Positions 44,527 to 48,700 of a stretch of 64,000 bases of DNA are shown here, one piece after another. The DNA is taken from IMG/VR virus record IMGVR_UViG_640753051_000003. One strand, given 5' to 3'. Source of the DNA: an uncultured virus (IMG/VR IMGVR_UViG_640753051_000003) (Duplodnaviria > Heunggongvirae > Uroviricota > Caudoviricetes). Numbering within the stretch: position 1 is the stretch's first letter; each line of letters starts with the position of its first letter. Made by a program: the position numbers and the translations under genes. The notes below the pieces were generated by a model. The model made no database searches and had not been told where the DNA came from. It saw only the letters and a program-made list of their open reading frames with translations.

Positions 44527-44795
44527 TTAGGTATTCTTCGGCTGATCTGCAACAGGAATTTCGAATACCGCCGCGTCATCCTCTTTCGGCCTTATGCCCT
44601 TGAAGGAAGCATGACGCAGCTTGCCGTCGTCCGTCCAGCCGCGATACTCAACTTCGGCGACCAGAACCGGCTCGACGAGGACGGCGGCTTTCCTCCTCAG
44701 GACGACCGCCGGAGTTCTCGTCGCCATCCTCTCGAGCAACTTCCGCAGCTCGCGCGACAGCTCGTTTGACCAGCCCGTCCCGCAGCCGCAGCCAT
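44527..44795 (-). pseudogene. C-terminal OB-fold fragment of an ATP-dependent DNA ligase
   Basis: GCGTGWS...EPVLVAEVEYRGWTDDGKLRHASFKG; catalytic domain missing. Confidence 0.75.
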
Positions 44796-45022
44796 ATGAC
44801 ACTGTCCGTCGCCTTTGTCGGTTCAGCGACACAAAATTTCCTTCAACTATGTTGTCAAGGTTTCCCACCTAATTATTTGAAAAAACAATATATCATTGTC
44901 TGCCAAACGCGGGTGACACGGGAAGGTAAGGAGACTATATAGATGCTGCGCGACCAGGCACGACTTCGACGTTTACCCTGGTAGCGCATGTTGTTGGGCA
45001 TTCGTGTGCCCCGAACAACCGA
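44785..45022 (+). promoter_or_regulatory. nifH-promoter-like repeat copy 1 with TGT-N10-ACA
   Basis: TGTcggttcagcgACA at 44816-44831; aGGCACGact at 44956; leader gcatgttgttgggcattc. Confidence 0.6.
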
Positions 45023-45051
45023 GTGCTTCATGAACTGAAGGCCAGAAAAAG

Positions 45052-45390
45052 ATGCCCACTGCTCCAAACGAGCACCCCACGGATGGGAAAGTCGACACTT
45101 GCACTTTCCCGGAAGAAGTTCTGAATTCGCCCCTACCGGTCGTCGCCGCCTTCTCGGGAGATCGTTGCCTGCCGTGCGACGCGGTTGCATTCAGCCTCAA
45201 ACAAATCGCCACCGAGCTTGCTGGCAAGGTCAAGGTGGTCAAGATCGACGTCGACGAGAACCTCGATCTCGCGGCGCAGTATGGCGTACGCGAGGTTCCG
45301 ACGCTTCTCATGTTCAAGGGTGGTGAAGTCGCCGACATCTACGTCGGAACCGGCTCACTCCGCTCATGGATTTCGGAGGCGCTGGCTTGA
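45052..45390 (+). CDS. thioredoxin-like protein
   Basis: CLPC, VVKIDVDEN...YGVREVPTL. Confidence 0.8.
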   Translation: MPTAPNEHPTDGKVDTCTFPEEVLNSPLPVVAAFSGDRCLPCDAVAFSLKQIATELAGKVKVVKIDVDENLDLAAQYGVREVPTLLMFKGGEVADIYVGTGSLRSWISEALA

Positions 45391-45621
45391 GTCGCCGGTC
45401 TTCGCCTCCTTCGATACGCCGAGCGACCAACCCTTCTACCGGCGCATCTGAAACTGATCCGAATGCTCACCAACGTCCACCTCTGGAGGACCAATGATCC
45501 TGCACAGTCTTAGGGCGCTGAAAATGGCGCTCGCCACGCCTTTTAACATCGGCTTCTGCCGAACATCCCTGGCAAAGGGACTCTTCTCTACGTCACAGTA
45601 TGAGGAAAGGGAGTATCTAAT

Positions 45622-46038
45622 ATGACGAAGTTTTCCCAGCTCGCGGCGGGGCTCGGACTGTTGGCAGCGATCGCCGCTTCACAGTCCCAGTTTGGTGCGG
45701 GCGCTGCAGGTTTAGTCGCGCTCGGCGCCGCCTCTATCTCCTCACCTGCCTTCGCGCAAAATCAGCCATGCAATGATAATGGTACACATTGCTCGATGGT
45801 AAAAGCTTATAACCGAACGAACGTCACGCGTTGTTTTCGCTTTTACTTGCCGACGGGAACGCGGCAGTTCACTCCCGCTGACGGGGTCCCTATGGACCTC
45901 GGGGGGTTACATCCTGGCACCAGATTTACATATTCCATTTTTGGAGCGACTTGTGGCGGCGCCGCGTGGTCGACGCGAACCTACACTGTGGCCGCTGTCG
46001 ATGGCCAACGGCTCGTAATCTTTGAAACGCCGGAATAA
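45622..46038 (+). CDS. secreted Cys-containing hypothetical protein
   Basis: GGGAG RBS; long signal ending PAFA-Q; four Cys. Confidence 0.6.
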   Translation: MTKFSQLAAGLGLLAAIAASQSQFGAGAAGLVALGAASISSPAFAQNQPCNDNGTHCSMVKAYNRTNVTRCFRFYLPTGTRQFTPADGVPMDLGGLHPGTRFTYSIFGATCGGAAWSTRTYTVAAVDGQRLVIFETPE

Positions 46039-46161
46039 AATTCCGCTCTTTCCTGCTTCCCCGATGCAGCTTGCTGCATCGGGGTTCACCCGACGACGTT
46101 GTAGCGTCTTTGTCGCCTGGGTCAGCGTCGGTGACGCAGACTTTCTTGTATTTGCCTGACG

Positions 46162-46374
46162 GCATTGGCCGTAATCGGCTCCTCGACACAGATTGTTCCT
46201 TGAACCGTGTGGTCATATCTCCACCTAAGTAGCTCAACAGCGAGCAATGTCCTTCCTTCAGCTCTCACCCCTGCGACCAAGCACCACTTTTGCACGATCT
46301 AGCCCCCGGGCGTGCATGCCGTTGTGACATTCATGTTGCGGACCAAAATGGTTCAAAACAACAAAGGAGACAAG
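46162..46374 (+). promoter_or_regulatory. nifH-promoter-like repeat copy 2
   Basis: aatcggctcctcgacac; aaGCACcactTTTGCAcgatc; leader ending aaacaacaaagga..caagATG. Confidence 0.6.
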
Positions 46375-47112
46375 ATGATAACCGCCTCTCCACTCAATGG
46401 GCGAATGCCATTAACCGCCTTAATGTTCGTTTTTGTTTGCGGACTATCGATGCCGGCGCGCGCGGCTGAAGTCATTGATCACGACCAGGTGAAAGGGTTT
46501 CCCGACAGCACCTCGGGTCTCCTCAAGACCTTTCAGCCCTCTCTCAAAGTTATCCGAGGCTGCGTCCCTTTCCCGGCCGTGGATGCCGACGGCAACGTCA
46601 GCGGCGGTCTGAAGCCATCAGGAATGGCGAGCGGCGGTTGCTCACGCAGCCCTGGACAGATCTATGTCAGAGCTGGGGAGTATAACGGTCAGTGTGCCGT
46701 CATGTACTCGTGGTTCTTTCCCAAGGACCAGAACCAGACCTGGCCCCTCAAGGGCGGGTCTCGGTATGATTGGGAGGATGTCATCGTATGGCTGACGCGT
46801 TGCGATAGCGAAGCGCAGGTTGAAGCGGTCAGCTATTGGAGCGGTGGTCGTTACAACGTGACGCCACAGCCGCACATGGATGGAACACATCCGCTGGTCA
46901 AATACTACCGGCCGGAAGGCGGAAACCAATTTTTACTCGCGGACACCCGGTACCGTGGCGGCAAGCAGCCTGCAGTCAGCTGGTCCGACCTGACCGAGGA
47001 AGCAAGGGAAACGCTCGACAACTATAACTTCGGCAAAGTGGCTGTGCCATTCAACTCTTACAACTTCGACGCCAATCTGGAGACGGCCTGGCGACAAGGA
47101 CATGGAGGCTGA
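46375..47112 (+). CDS. NPP1/NLP (necrosis- and ethylene-inducing-like) secreted protein
   Basis: Signal peptide; GCVPFPAVDADGNVSGGL, AVMYSWFFPKD, GSRYDWE. Confidence 0.9.
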   Translation: MITASPLNGRMPLTALMFVFVCGLSMPARAAEVIDHDQVKGFPDSTSGLLKTFQPSLKVIRGCVPFPAVDADGNVSGGLKPSGMASGGCSRSPGQIYVRAGEYNGQCAVMYSWFFPKDQNQTWPLKGGSRYDWEDVIVWLTRCDSEAQVEAVSYWSGGRYNVTPQPHMDGTHPLVKYYRPEGGNQFLLADTRYRGGKQPAVSWSDLTEEARETLDNYNFGKVAVPFNSYNFDANLETAWRQGHGG

Positions 47113-47313
47113 TTGGGGAATTCCTGGGCCGGAAACGGTGGTGCTCAAAGGCTCCGCCGTGACCGCTCCGCGACCGCACGACAATCGGCAGGTGTTGGAC
47201 AATGTCTACCGCCGTTGGCAAGCGCCCGAGCGCCCGCACAAATGCGACAGAGCTATAACGCGTCAGAATTTCTTAATGCGTCGATCACATCAATCGGCGT
47301 CGAGCGGATGACT

Positions 47314-47539
47314 GCCGCAGCCATATGACATTGTCCGTCAATCGGCTCCTCGACACGAATTTGTTCGTTGAACTATCAGTCAATTTCCCATTCTGGCTAA
47401 GAAACATTACCGTTATTTCATCAGCATTATCAGTATTCTAGTAGCCCCCTACGACCGGGAACGGCTATAACCCCGTGCATGCTGTTTGGCATTCAGGTGT
47501 CCCGAAAAACCGCATCGTACAAACACGGAGTAAATAGCT
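47314..47539 (+). promoter_or_regulatory. nifH-promoter-like repeat copy 3
   Basis: gccgcagccatatgacattgtccgtc shared with copy 1; aatcggctcctcgacac shared with copy 2; leader gcatgctgtttggcattc. Confidence 0.55.
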
Positions 47540-48700
47540 TTGGAGAGCAATAAGATCCTGTCTATGGAGTCACGGGCCCCCGCGCTGAAAGTGCGGGACT
47601 GGGTACGTGGTGAGCCCCTTGCGAGCTTCCAGCCGGGTAAATTGTACATTCTTGAATTTTGTGGAACCACATGTGACGGTTGTGAGCGGGCGATGCTCAA
47701 TCTGATAGAGCTGCAGGAGAGTTATAAGGACAGTGGAGTTGAGGTCGTCACGGTCGCGGCACACGAAAGCGCTGCATCCTCCGATGAGGCCCGAGGCAAG
47801 CTTGACGCGTGGTTGGCTAAGTTCCCGGAGTTGAACTTTCCAGTCGCGTTCGACGACACAGGCGCAATGAACACGCTATGGATGGAGCCGAGTTTTTCGA
47901 TCGTGATTCCGAGGCTGTTCGTGATCGACCGAGACGGCTACATTGCCTTTATCGGCCATCCGGACAAACTGCACGACGTTCTTCCGCACTTGCTGGACGG
48001 CACCTGGCGCACCAGCGCTCAAGCGAAGGCAACGGAAAGCGAGCGCATCGCCGAAGATGAACCAAAAGCGCGCAAGCATGCGTTGTTGAAGCCGATCAGA
48101 GGCAAAAGAAGGGCAGCGGAGGGAATAGGGGATTGGATGACGGCCCTTACGGCGGTCGAAGAGGGCATCGCCCTTGATCCGGACAGCTACAATTTACGCG
48201 CGTATCAAGTCCATCTGCTACTTGATAAAATGTGGGACATGGAAAATGGCTTGGTGGTGCTATGGCAATTCGTTCGCGAAGCCATCGACAGAGGCGACGC
48301 ACATTGGCTGGTTACGGCGATGATGCAAATCTTCCGTCAGAGCCTTCCCTCTGCCGAGCGTTTCGCGATGGGCGAGGTGCTATCAGAACACATCCTGGCC
48401 CTGGATCTCGCGCAATGCAATCTCCCCGCGTCCCAGCTTTTTCCGAAGGTGGCCCGCCACTACTATGAGATCGGCAACAAGGACCGCGCCGTCGAGTTGC
48501 TCGAGCTGGCGCTGAAGTCGCTGGAGGGGCATGGAGCGAAAGAACGCCCTCAACTAGATCTGCTGCAGACTCTGGCCAATTACAAGGGCGAGACGGTTTG
48601 TTCCGGTGATGTTTGTGTGGTCCCGCGGACGAATATTTCGACCGGTGCCACGCCAAAGGCGGAGACGAAGAACCTCGATGAAAGAGGAGCTCTTGAATGA
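47540..48700 (+). CDS. TlpA-like disulfide reductase with helical C-terminus
   Basis: ILEFCGTTCDGC, FPVAFD, FVIDRDGYIAFIGHP. Confidence 0.8.
   Translation: MESNKILSMESRAPALKVRDWVRGEPLASFQPGKLYILEFCGTTCDGCERAMLNLIELQESYKDSGVEVVTVAAHESAASSDEARGKLDAWLAKFPELNFPVAFDDTGAMNTLWMEPSFSIVIPRLFVIDRDGYIAFIGHPDKLHDVLPHLLDGTWRTSAQAKATESERIAEDEPKARKHALLKPIRGKRRAAEGIGDWMTALTAVEEGIALDPDSYNLRAYQVHLLLDKMWDMENGLVVLWQFVREAIDRGDAHWLVTAMMQIFRQSLPSAERFAMGEVLSEHILALDLAQCNLPASQLFPKVARHYYEIGNKDRAVELLELALKSLEGHGAKERPQLDLLQTLANYKGETVCSGDVCVVPRTNISTGATPKAETKNLDERGALE

Follow-up and report, generated by a model that had tools for sequence, protein, structure and literature searches.

Three diverged copies of the Sinorhizobium nifH/fixA promoter-leader unit ahead of cargo genes in an S. 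medicae prophage

In Sinorhizobium, reiterated nifH promoters that bring extra genes under symbiotic control have been described since the 1980s. The NifA-RpoN promoters of S. meliloti and S. medicae nifH (P1) and fixA (P2) reportedly show upstream homology over some 160 nt or more, an observation that goes back to Better et al. in 1983, and a duplicated nifH promoter is said, in the work of Murphy et al. from 1988 and 1993, to precede the mos locus for rhizopine synthesis in S. meliloti L5-30. The morons of Juhala and Hendrix are likewise said to be autonomous units, each with a promoter, a gene and a terminator, that phages have gained next to their core genes or in the gaps between them. 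In PMC6668481, rhizopine synthesis is described as being under NifA control. For S. meliloti phiLM21-like prophages, PMC12429752 (2025) reports a cargo of a TlpA-family disulfide reductase, a thioredoxin/redoxin, a necrosis-inducing protein and LigD; the same gene set occurs in the prophage described here, whose host is S. medicae. In the main text of PMC12429752, 'nifH' and 'promoter' occur 0 times each and promoter-derived blocks are not discussed.

We analysed a 64-kb stretch of DNA (the window), in which three plus-strand blocks, at 44783-45051, 46145-46374 and 47304-47563, were identified by blastn and nhmmer as homologous to the promoter-leader unit, ~250 nt long, of Sinorhizobium nifH/fixA. 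This unit consists of a NifA upstream activator site (UAS), a bend region, a sigma-54 -24/-12 core, the nifH 5'UTR and a Shine-Dalgarno sequence (SD), and is present three times between fixA and nifH in the S. medicae genome itself. Plain blastn against the fixA-nifH intergenic region of the same-species reference assembly (G000 C35), before any profile was built, aligned block 2 with nifH P1 (72% over 217 nt, E 1.5e-24) and blocks 1 and 3 with fixA P2 (80.6% over 103 nt, E 8e-17, and 76% over 135 nt, E 1.5e-18, respectively). A profile of the three window blocks and the three copies from the nifH/fixA region of the S. medicae genome had exactly three nhmmer matches within the 64-kb window, with e-values of 2e-54, 1.8e-51 and 2.9e-46 for blocks 1, 2 and 3, all of which are members of the profile, while independent copies outside the window scored between 1e-35 and 1e-65. 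As in nifH P1 and fixA P2, the blocks are collinear over the UAS, bend and -24/-12 regions, and with nifH this continues through the leader and SD to the ATG, whose position is taken by the cargo start codon. Whereas the nifH and fixA copies are on pSym, those in the window belong to a chromosomal prophage and stand ahead of genes other than nif.

The sequence details given in the earlier note for three mutually similar blocks ahead of thioredoxin, NLP and TlpA genes are all present: copies 1 and 3 have a 26-nt stretch in common (44785-44810 and 47314-47339, 96%), copies 2 and 3 have 22 nt in common (46173-46194 and 47340-47361, 91%), GCATGYYGTT..CATTC is common to all three, and in copy 2 AAGCACcactTTTGCA stands at 46279-46294 and aaacaacaaaggag ahead of the ATG at 46375. 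The BLASTN comparison proposed there as a check on a nifH-upstream origin was positive, with an alignment spanning the UAS to the ATG. These alignments identify the three blocks as duplicates of the ~250-nt symbiotic promoter unit that have since diverged. No supporting evidence was found for regarding the similarity as coincidence, or the blocks as an unrelated dispersed repeat or mobile element; blocks 1 and 3 do contain insertions, and there is no single long exact match among the window copies. However, this explanation, to which we assign practically no probability, is refuted by the e-values of 1e-17 to 1e-24 that plain blastn gave for the nifH/fixA region of S. medicae itself, by the UAS-to-ATG collinearity and by intermediate copies that retain nifH codons; terminal inverted repeats or a transposase associated with the blocks were not found.

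Comparison with the reference assembly and with known phages shows that the blocks belong to the cargo end, low in GC, of an S. medicae phiLM21/phi2LM21-like prophage, with a tRNA-Lys attachment site on one side and the lysis/tail genes on the other. The 3' 45 nt of tRNA-Lys(CTT), an attachment-site copy at the prophage end, occupy 44375-44419 on the minus strand; identity to G000 ends at 44419 and prophage DNA begins at 44420. The S. medicae reference assembly has an intact tRNA-Lys at the empty site (G000 C12:8924-8999), and the 64-kb window holds no complete tRNA. At 44527-44800 (minus strand) there is a C-terminal remnant of a phage NHEJ/ATP-dependent DNA ligase (Pfam DNA_ligase_A_C, 3e-16), which is 54-56% identical in amino acid sequence to the right-end ligase of phiLM21 and phi2LM21, and the 5' part of which is replaced by the cassettes. 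Late genes on the minus strand, encoding a peptidoglycan-binding protein, tail fibre/tip, DUF6950 and tape measure (Pfam PG_binding_1, Phage_Tail_Tip, DUF6950, TMP_2), fill 49697-64000; the region 55692-63073 has 70% nucleotide identity to phi2LM21 over 55%, and GC content is 52-58% in the cargo versus 60-64% in the tail genes. The prophage setting suggested earlier is thus supported by the empty site, the tRNA fragment, the ligase remnant and the tail genes downstream, and the same flanks place the cargo outside the core modules.

The cargo genes are all on the plus strand. Block 1 precedes a thioredoxin-family gene with a CLPC motif (45052-45390; Pfam Thioredoxin, 1.2e-18), block 2 a gene for an NPP1/NLP-family secreted protein (46375-47112; Pfam NPP1, 6.7e-53), and block 3 a gene for a TlpA/redoxin-family thiol-disulfide reductase (47540-48700; Redoxin 4.5e-11, AhpC-TSA 2.7e-10) with a TPR-containing C-terminal part (Pfam TPR_14, 9.3e-5) and two alternative starts, TTG 47540 (GGAG 9 nt upstream) and ATG 47564. 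The claim that each cargo gene sits behind a block holds for these three and fails for a 138-aa ORF (45622-46038), which has no Pfam match, a signal-peptide-like N-terminus by eye and no block of its own, and which probably shares a transcript with the thioredoxin gene. An 11-bp GC-rich hairpin lacking a T tract (46059-46084, plus strand; -23.1 kcal/mol, z -3.4) is a possible end of this first transcription unit. The NLP and TlpA genes probably form a second unit closed by an intrinsic terminator with a 10-bp stem and TTTTT (48859-48895, plus strand; -21.9 kcal/mol, z -5.06, 0 of 200 shuffles as stable). In its position at the prophage end by the att site, its lower GC, this terminator and a candidate promoter of its own, the sigma-70-like site in block 1, the cargo resembles morons. 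Unlike the generic promoters of morons, its upstream regions can still be recognised as descended from a symbiosis promoter of the host.

A copy-by-copy table drawn from the alignment agrees with the damage that the earlier note had listed for each block, and with its perfect TGT-N10-ACA in copy 1. Block 1 retains this intact UAS at 44816-44831, the -24 GGCAC at 44957-44961 and a nifH-type leader with SD; the -12 TTGCA is gone, and its core reads AGGCACGACTTCGACG, without GC. Block 2, of the NLP type, has lost the left half of the UAS (AAT for TGT, giving AAT-N10-ACA), with a shared 5-nt deletion; it has AAGCAC at the -24 position (46279-46284) and retains the -12 TTGCA (46290-46294), leader and SD, so that its core reads AAGCACCACTTTTGCA, without GG. 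Block 3, of the TlpA type, shares the UAS lesion of block 2, retains the leader, carries an additional insertion of ~21-28 nt, and has a relic, CGACCGGGAACGGCTATAACC, at 47452-47472 with no recognisable -24/-12. Unlike nifH and fixA, then, all three blocks lack the sigma-54 core GG-N10-GC (TGGCAC-N5-TTGCW), two of them lack the UAS and two have insertions. The GG and GC doublets of sigma-54 promoters are near-invariant, and their spacing is critical. A scan of 44400-49300 for GG-N10-GC returned nothing better than 8/11, with all such sites inside coding regions, and hence no alternative intergenic sigma-54 site.

These lesions recur in relatives. AAGCAC is found in all 25 NLP-type entries, or 24 distinct ones since one (L014) duplicates the window itself; the motif CCAAGCAC is likewise invariant in 25/25, and the spacer is canonical in 7 and one base shorter in 18. 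The block 3 lesions are present in L003_7785 and L016_957. Being common to relatives, the lesions are inherited subfamily traits, and they are unconstrained. Intact [TC]GGCAC-N5-TTGC[AT] cores were detected in 12 entries, 10 of them distinct once 2 duplicate L001 copies are set aside, and prophage contigs are among their carriers (L017, L021, L034). Remnants of the nifH N-terminus follow four of the seven intact copies examined; among relatives, such remnants occur in L005, L008, L017 and the middle copy of L001. Intact TGGCAC-N5-TTGCA copies that retain nifH codons stand ahead of TlpA or NLP homologues in L005 (TlpA), L017 (NLP) and L021. The window blocks are thus like mos in that a nifH promoter-leader copy has been recruited ahead of accessory, symbiosis-related genes, and their intact relatives elsewhere carry first nifH codons, as mos ORF1 reportedly does. 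Unlike mos, which is plasmid-borne and NifA-dependent, the window copies are phage-borne and have lost the sigma-54 core, and the alignment reveals no nifH codons after them and so no fusion of the mos type. As to the idea that the genes were once, or still are, wired for bacteroid expression, 'once' appears plausible given the TlpA and NLP homologues behind intact copies, whereas the absent GG-N10-GC and variable spacer argue against 'still'.

Across IMG/VR, NLP homologues were found on 23 viral contigs, of which 20 bear nifH-like blocks by nhmmer; the block abuts the ATG in 17 of the 23 loci, and the exact leader pattern was found on 18 contigs. Gene order and pairing vary: L015 reads NLP, block 1-thioredoxin-ORF138, NLP fragment, TlpA-like, and in L010 and L021 a thioredoxin homologue lies behind an NLP-type block. 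Against the L027 prophage, ORF138 has 97-100% nucleotide identity and the block 81-96%; as the blocks are no more conserved than their flanks, we make no claim of selection on the leader.

Block 1 contains a 37-nt insertion (44912-44948, plus strand), seen as an alignment gap and in the motif scan, which opens with GGTGAC (44912-44917) and has CTATAT (44935-44940) after 17 nt. Because of it the UAS is 36 nt further from the -24 relic, the distance being 140 nt compared to the usual 103-104 nt. The same insertion is present in both other block-1-type copies (L015_4921, L018_2519). PMC2873474 gives CTTGAC-N17-CTATAT as the S. meliloti sigma-70 consensus, and the predicted site matches it at 10 of 12 positions. 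Both strands of the window together have 8 sites with at least 10/12, where Markov simulations gave 4.25 on average, and on motif score alone this one is unremarkable; a stricter E. coli-type promoter scan did not list it. Three RNA-library contigs start, with no loose end, just 3' of the insertion, at 44957 (X13) and 44966 (X14) in one study and 44961 (X10) in another. Contigs of these three runs cover 44957-49300, a coverage that by itself is no proof of transcription; a contig of a further run, X1, itself labelled RNA, not DNA, runs through 44957-44966. As assembled contigs these data cannot rank genes and give only a weak hint of a 5' end. The insertion seems to be a near-consensus sigma-70 promoter by which this copy was re-armed for housekeeping transcription.

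It may be asked whether the blocks are still working symbiotic promoters, with NifA and RpoN, or a second, plasmid-encoded RpoN, tolerating the deviant -24/-12 and turning on the thioredoxin, NLP and TlpA genes in bacteroids. The perfect UAS and -24 GGCAC of block 1, the canonical spacing of TTGCA from AAGCAC in block 2 and the abutment on the ATG at most viral NLP loci would fit this, as would a full-length second rpoN ~870 nt downstream of an NLP-type block and thioredoxin gene on the S. medicae plasmid pMl3 (L010). However, in the accessory RpoN encoded by L010 the RpoN box is of the ordinary type (ARRTVAKYR), and no block has both doublets. The shortened spacer of most NLP-type copies, the missing TGT half-sites in blocks 2 and 3 and the displaced UAS in block 1 are also against it, and the starts of the RNA-library contigs, which fall upstream of the sigma-54 start to be expected (~44982), are a weak point on the same side. 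We therefore consider this reading improbable.

A somewhat better, though still doubtful, case can be made for the NLP-type 3' half (TCTCACCCC..AAGCAC..TTGCA..leader) having become a site, promoter or operator, used by a different sigma factor or regulator, giving regulated, possibly plant-associated, NifA-independent expression. At four NLP loci (L018, L019, L020, L026) the 5' half of the block is missing and the 3' half is kept next to the ATG, and the complete invariance of CCAAGCAC points the same way; from these truncated copies and the frequent abutment, the AAGCAC..TTGCA part could still be functional. Against this, the plus strand of block 2 has no sigma-70 match of at least 9/12, no Rfam family was found in 40000-52000, and the 3' half is 81-87% identical to the L027 prophage. 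As this is lower than in ORF138, the conservation may merely reflect recent common descent. A joint version, in which the nifH unit is both a portable phage cargo adaptor and a recombination joint and the widespread NLP-type variant, far from dead, is newly nodule- or plant-responsive, we regard as unlikely; under it, Sinorhizobium phages would capture, re-order and spread plant-interaction cargo (NLP-like, thiol-redox) among pSym, accessory plasmids and chromosomal prophages.

The most likely explanation is that the three blocks are fossil NifA promoters, now serving as 5'UTR/ribosome-binding site and recombination joints, given the inherited loss of the sigma-54 core in all three and of the NifA site in two, together with the intact copies elsewhere. 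To the joint account, in which decayed nifH/fixA copies were kept as 5'UTR/RBS, re-armed by sigma-70 in block 1, and act as recombination joints, we assign a probability of roughly 0.6. In this account the blocks would no longer be NifA/RpoN promoters and would persist because they provide the cargo genes with a 5'UTR and a ribosome-binding site; the block 1 insertion would bring a sigma-70 promoter, from which the thioredoxin-ORF138 unit is probably transcribed independently of NifA; and the dispersed blocks would provide homology joints through which prophages, pSym megaplasmids and accessory plasmids may exchange promoter-plus-gene cassettes and change their order. As neither sigma-70 scan found a promoter for NLP or TlpA, two of the three genes are not fully covered by the account.

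A phage-borne, decayed and re-armed form of the nifH promoter appears to be undescribed in the literature searched. The NLP family is best known from plant pathogens, and here the nifH promoter unit travels on temperate phages beside an NLP-family gene, with whole subfamilies of copies that lack a sigma-54 core and yet are still attached to cargo. Phages thus carry and shuffle cassettes that were plausibly once wired for root-nodule expression. If confirmed, this would be a clear natural case, on mobile DNA, of a promoter that was captured, decayed and was replaced, and it would provide phage-borne candidates, namely the NLP-like, thioredoxin, TlpA and conserved, predicted-secreted 138-aa proteins, for strain differences in symbiotic performance.

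Three mutually similar blocks (block 1, 44783-45051; block 2, 46145-46374; block 3, 47304-47563) lie upstream of the first, third and fourth of the cargo genes that sequence reading (44000-49500) and ORF and Pfam scans delineated on the + strand. These genes encode a thioredoxin-family protein (Trx, 45052-45390), a 138-residue product without a family (ORF138, 45622-46038), an NPP1/NLP-family protein (46375-47112) and a TlpA/redoxin protein with a TPR tail, which starts at 47540 or 47564 and ends at 48700. ORF138 has no block of its own. The motifs quoted in the earlier note were all recovered in place by sequence reading and by repeat and motif searches. 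Plain blastn of the blocks against G000, a reference assembly of the same species, returned matches on contig C35 (12081-14175), where the ORFs correspond to fixXCBA and, on the opposite strand, nifHDK, with three promoter copies between fixA and nifH, namely fixA P2, a middle copy and nifH P1. Blocks 1 and 3 matched fixA P2 (E = 8e-17 and 1.5e-18, respectively), and block 2 matched nifH P1 (E = 1.5e-24). An alignment of the six sequences is collinear through the NifA site (UAS, TGT-N10-ACA), an A/T-rich middle, the TGGCAC-N5-TTGCA core, the nifH leader (missing from fixA P2), the AAAGGA Shine-Dalgarno sequence and the ATG. A profile from this alignment detected three places in the window and no more (E = 2e-54, 1.8e-51 and 2.9e-46), as well as independent copies in other loci. 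Thus, the nifH ancestry proposed for the blocks, for which BLASTN had been suggested as the check, is borne out by blastn, collinearity and the profile scan alike, as is their number. G000 matches window positions 1-32285 at 99.94% identity and shares a 100% identical nifH upstream region with S. medicae WSM419 and with further pSym records of S. medicae, which identifies the organism as Sinorhizobium medicae.

The middle copy of this fixA-nifH region (L001 5011-5254) has an intact UAS and sigma-54 core, and runs into a shortened nifH start (MAALRQIAFDGKG..) fused to unrelated sequence. Between it and nifH P1 lies a remnant of an RpoN C-terminus (L001 5473-5574; C35:13472-13573) that spans the RpoN-box region (..GRTVAKYRGAMNIQP..) and is 82% identical over 34 residues to an RpoN encoded by the plasmid pMl3. 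Downstream of TlpA in the window, we noted a leader-like stretch of 19 nt (48829-48847, 84% to block 3) and a match of 14-15 nt, in inverted orientation, to the UAS region (48811-48826); neither was reported by the nhmmer scan with the block profile, and they could represent either a fourth, almost erased block or chance.

The cargo adjoins a phage attachment scar. Contig C12 of G000 carries tRNA-Lys(CTT) intact, whereas at that position only its 3' 45 nt (44375-44419) remain in the window, beyond which the DNA is unrelated, and ARAGORN detected no whole tRNA in the window. Directly inside the fragment lies what is left of an ATP-dependent/NHEJ DNA ligase, its C-terminal part (Pfam, 3e-16), which shares 54-56% identity with the ligase that phages phiLM21 and phi2LM21 encode at their right ends. 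From 49.7 kb onward, Pfam identified peptidoglycan-binding, tail tip, DUF6950 and tape-measure proteins on the - strand, and the segment 55692-63073 is 70% identical to phi2LM21 over 55% of its length. The cargo has a GC content of 52-58%, against 60-64% for the tail genes. The tRNA fragment set against the intact site, the ligase remnant and the tail genes together uphold the prophage setting. In a study on phiLM21-like S. meliloti prophages, the cargo includes a TlpA reductase, thioredoxin/redoxin, a necrosis-inducing protein and LigD, and a term search of its main text returned neither 'nifH' nor 'promoter' (PMC12429752, 2025). Elsewhere in the window, the gap between G000 contigs C16 and C12 is occupied by an IS21-type pair (IstA/IstB-like, 33227-34516 and 32427-33386) together with an IS110-family transposase (34532-35527), and the ends of these elements match several G000 contig ends.

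ORF138 has an N-terminus that resembles a signal peptide and belongs to no Pfam family. It is conserved better than any other part of the cargo, Trx and NLP included, with 97-100% nucleotide identity to the prophage of L027, an IMG/VR locus. The canonical form of the NLP heptapeptide is GHRHDWE, which is seen in the distant homologue of L036; the window has GSRYDWE, and the prophage homologues of L027, L018 and L019 have GSRYNWE or GHRSGWQ. The prophage proteins with deviant heptapeptides may behave unlike classical cytolytic NLPs.

Each block is damaged in its own way. Block 1 has a perfect UAS (44816-44831) and retains the -24 element GGCAC (44957-44961), with the -12 TTGCA replaced (AGGCACGACTTCGACG) and a 37-nt insertion (44912-44948) that widens the distance between UAS and core from 104 to 140 nt. 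Block 2 has lost the TGT half of its UAS along with a 5-nt deletion and has AAGCAC at -24, and it retains TTGCA and the leader. Block 3 shares the UAS lesion of block 2, bears one more insertion and has no recognizable core. A search for GG-N10-GC sites across 44400-49300 returned at best 8/11 matches, all such sites falling inside coding regions. These readings agree with the damage previously listed for each copy (the -12 in block 1, the -24 GG and UAS in block 2, no clear -24/-12 in block 3).

To place these lesions, we compared 11 plasmid loci (L003-L013), 23 IMG/VR viral-contig loci with NLP homologues and five IMG/VR loci with Trx homologues. Of the 23 NLP loci, 17 have a nifH-like block that runs up to the NLP start codon; among the other six, L016 and L022 have no upstream DNA within the locus, L015 has a weak partial match only, the block of L017 is intact and lies 517 nt upstream, and L035 and L036 have none. 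All 25 NLP-type entries, counting the window and its identical twin L014, have CCAAGCAC at the -24 position, and the spacer to TTGC is the canonical 5 nt in seven and 4 nt in 18, a variability that argues against selection for sigma-54 binding. The lesions of block 3 recur in L003_7785 (an accessory plasmid of S. meliloti M270) and L016_957, and the insertion of block 1 recurs in L015_4921 and L018_2519, so that the lesions are family traits rather than private decay. The pattern [TC]GGCAC-N5-TTGC[AT] was found in 12 entries, two of them L001 duplicates; nine of the 10 distinct intact copies also have a UAS at 95-104 nt. One intact relative lies on G000 contig C24 (L002 3953-4159). Reading through seven of the intact copies led to NifH N-terminal remnants in four (for example, MAALRQIAFYGKGGIGKS and MAALRQVAFSG), including those that precede homologues of TlpA (L005) and NLP (L017), and to short unrelated ORFs in three. 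Since such intact copies exist, some also on prophage contigs (L017, L021 and L034), an ancestral NifA-type promoter with a nifH start before cargo is still visible in relatives. An exact-pattern scan of IMG/VR returned 21 stretches, among which L044 proved a chance match with no nhmmer match. The suggestion that the blocks might still be wired through NifA and RpoN was not supported: none has a sigma-54 core, and NLP-type spacing varies among relatives. Judged on sequence, present-day NifA control of the blocks is quite unlikely.

The blocks and genes have been reassorted. In L015 the order is NLP, block 1-Trx-ORF138, an NLP 3' fragment and a TlpA-like gene; in L010 and L021 a Trx homologue stands behind an NLP-type block, and in four NLP loci only the 3' half of the block is left. 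Identity of 88-97% in the block versus 71-73% in the coding region at first pointed to stronger constraint on the block than on the NLP gene. However, in 100-nt bins against the L027 prophage, identity peaks in ORF138 (97-100%) and declines across block 2 (5' half, 96%; 3' half, 81-87%) to 55-65% through NLP; the blocks are therefore no more conserved than their flanks, and the profile reflects mosaicism instead of special constraint. On these comparisons, the region is a recombination mosaic whose breakpoints fall within and close to the blocks. The nifH promoter unit is itself a dispersed repeat in the genus, a 252-nt nifH upstream query having 391 matches spread over 91 plasmid records, of which as many as 14 fall on one pSymA. 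In the S. medicae ml42 plasmid pMl2 (L013 5313-5917), trxA adjoins a 153-nt ATP-dependent DNA ligase fragment, as in the window, which suggests that the Trx cassette and ligase remnant may have moved together between prophage and plasmid. The 50-kb plasmid pMl3 of S. medicae ml49 (NZ_CP140896.1) encodes a full-length second rpoN (L010 5218-6741), whose product shares 74.7% identity with that of the chromosomal gene on G000 C5. An NLP-type block and thioredoxin cassette precede this rpoN by about 870 nt, and the plasmid also has an intact nifH-type promoter (L010 1150-1380). An accessory RpoN of altered specificity was considered and rejected, the RpoN box of this paralogue being normal.

The insertion in block 1 begins with GGTGAC, followed 17 nt later by CTATAT, thereby matching 10 of 12 positions of CTTGAC-N17-CTATAT, given as the S. 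meliloti sigma-70 consensus in PMC2873474. Eight sites in the window, on both strands, score like this candidate against 4.25 in simulations, so the motif by itself is weak evidence, and what makes it notable is that it coincides exactly with the insertion. An E. coli-type promoter scan of the blocks returned nothing. Sites of at least 9/12 to the sigma-70 consensus were absent from block 2 and limited in block 3 to CTCGAC-N18-CTATCA (9/12), and neither scan detected a promoter for an NLP-TlpA unit. At least half of the words sampled from the stretch occurred in each of 20 public runs, of which 16 are recorded as RNA, and contigs of four (X1, X10, X13 and X14) were placed on the stretch; neither strand, nor level, nor the presence of a single transcript can be read from such contigs. 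Those of X13 and X14 (one study) start at 44957 and 44966, and that of X10 (another study) at 44961, all without loose ends; these starts fall 17-26 nt beyond the -10-like hexamer and before the expected sigma-54 start (~44982). Upstream of these starts there is nothing in X13 and X14 and only a depth-5 contig (44407-44691) in X10, though missing cover upstream of 44957 and differences in contig depth cannot rank genes or prove silence; the X1 contig is continuous from 44400 through 45232. The starts are a weak hint of a 5' end. A joint in X1 (47317>46184) was rejected as a splice or deletion, being a further copy of the block in that strain. Downstream of ORF138 there is a hairpin (46059-46084, z -3.4) and downstream of TlpA a strong terminator (48859-48895, z -5.06), with no significant structure after NLP (z -1.3), from which we infer two units, Trx-ORF138 and NLP-TlpA. 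An Rfam scan of 40000-52000 (E<=1) detected no family, and a conserved RNA structure in the nifH-type leader was discarded, RNAalifold giving only -3.5 kcal/mol for 13 distinct leaders, a set whose regular expression missed the block-1 and block-3 leaders.

The closest known systems are the homologous nifH P1 and fixA P2 promoters and the duplicated nifH promoter reported at the rhizopine mos locus. Rhizopine synthesis is described as being under NifA control in PMC6668481. The window copies descend from the nifH/fixA promoter unit yet lack the core that defines a sigma-54 promoter, and are hence classified as derivatives rather than members of the functional class. The cargo agrees with phage morons in location, and the evidence supports its autonomy in part. 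In the titles and abstract openings searched, nifH-derived blocks in Sinorhizobium prophages are undescribed, which is not proof of absence as most subscription journals lie outside that search. The earlier interpretation is thus supported for origin, setting and damage. We favor, with a probability of roughly 0.6, the reading that the blocks are fossil symbiotic promoter cassettes: they would now supply the cargo genes with a leader and ribosome-binding site and act as recombination joints, and block 1 would have been re-armed by insertion of a sigma-70 promoter.
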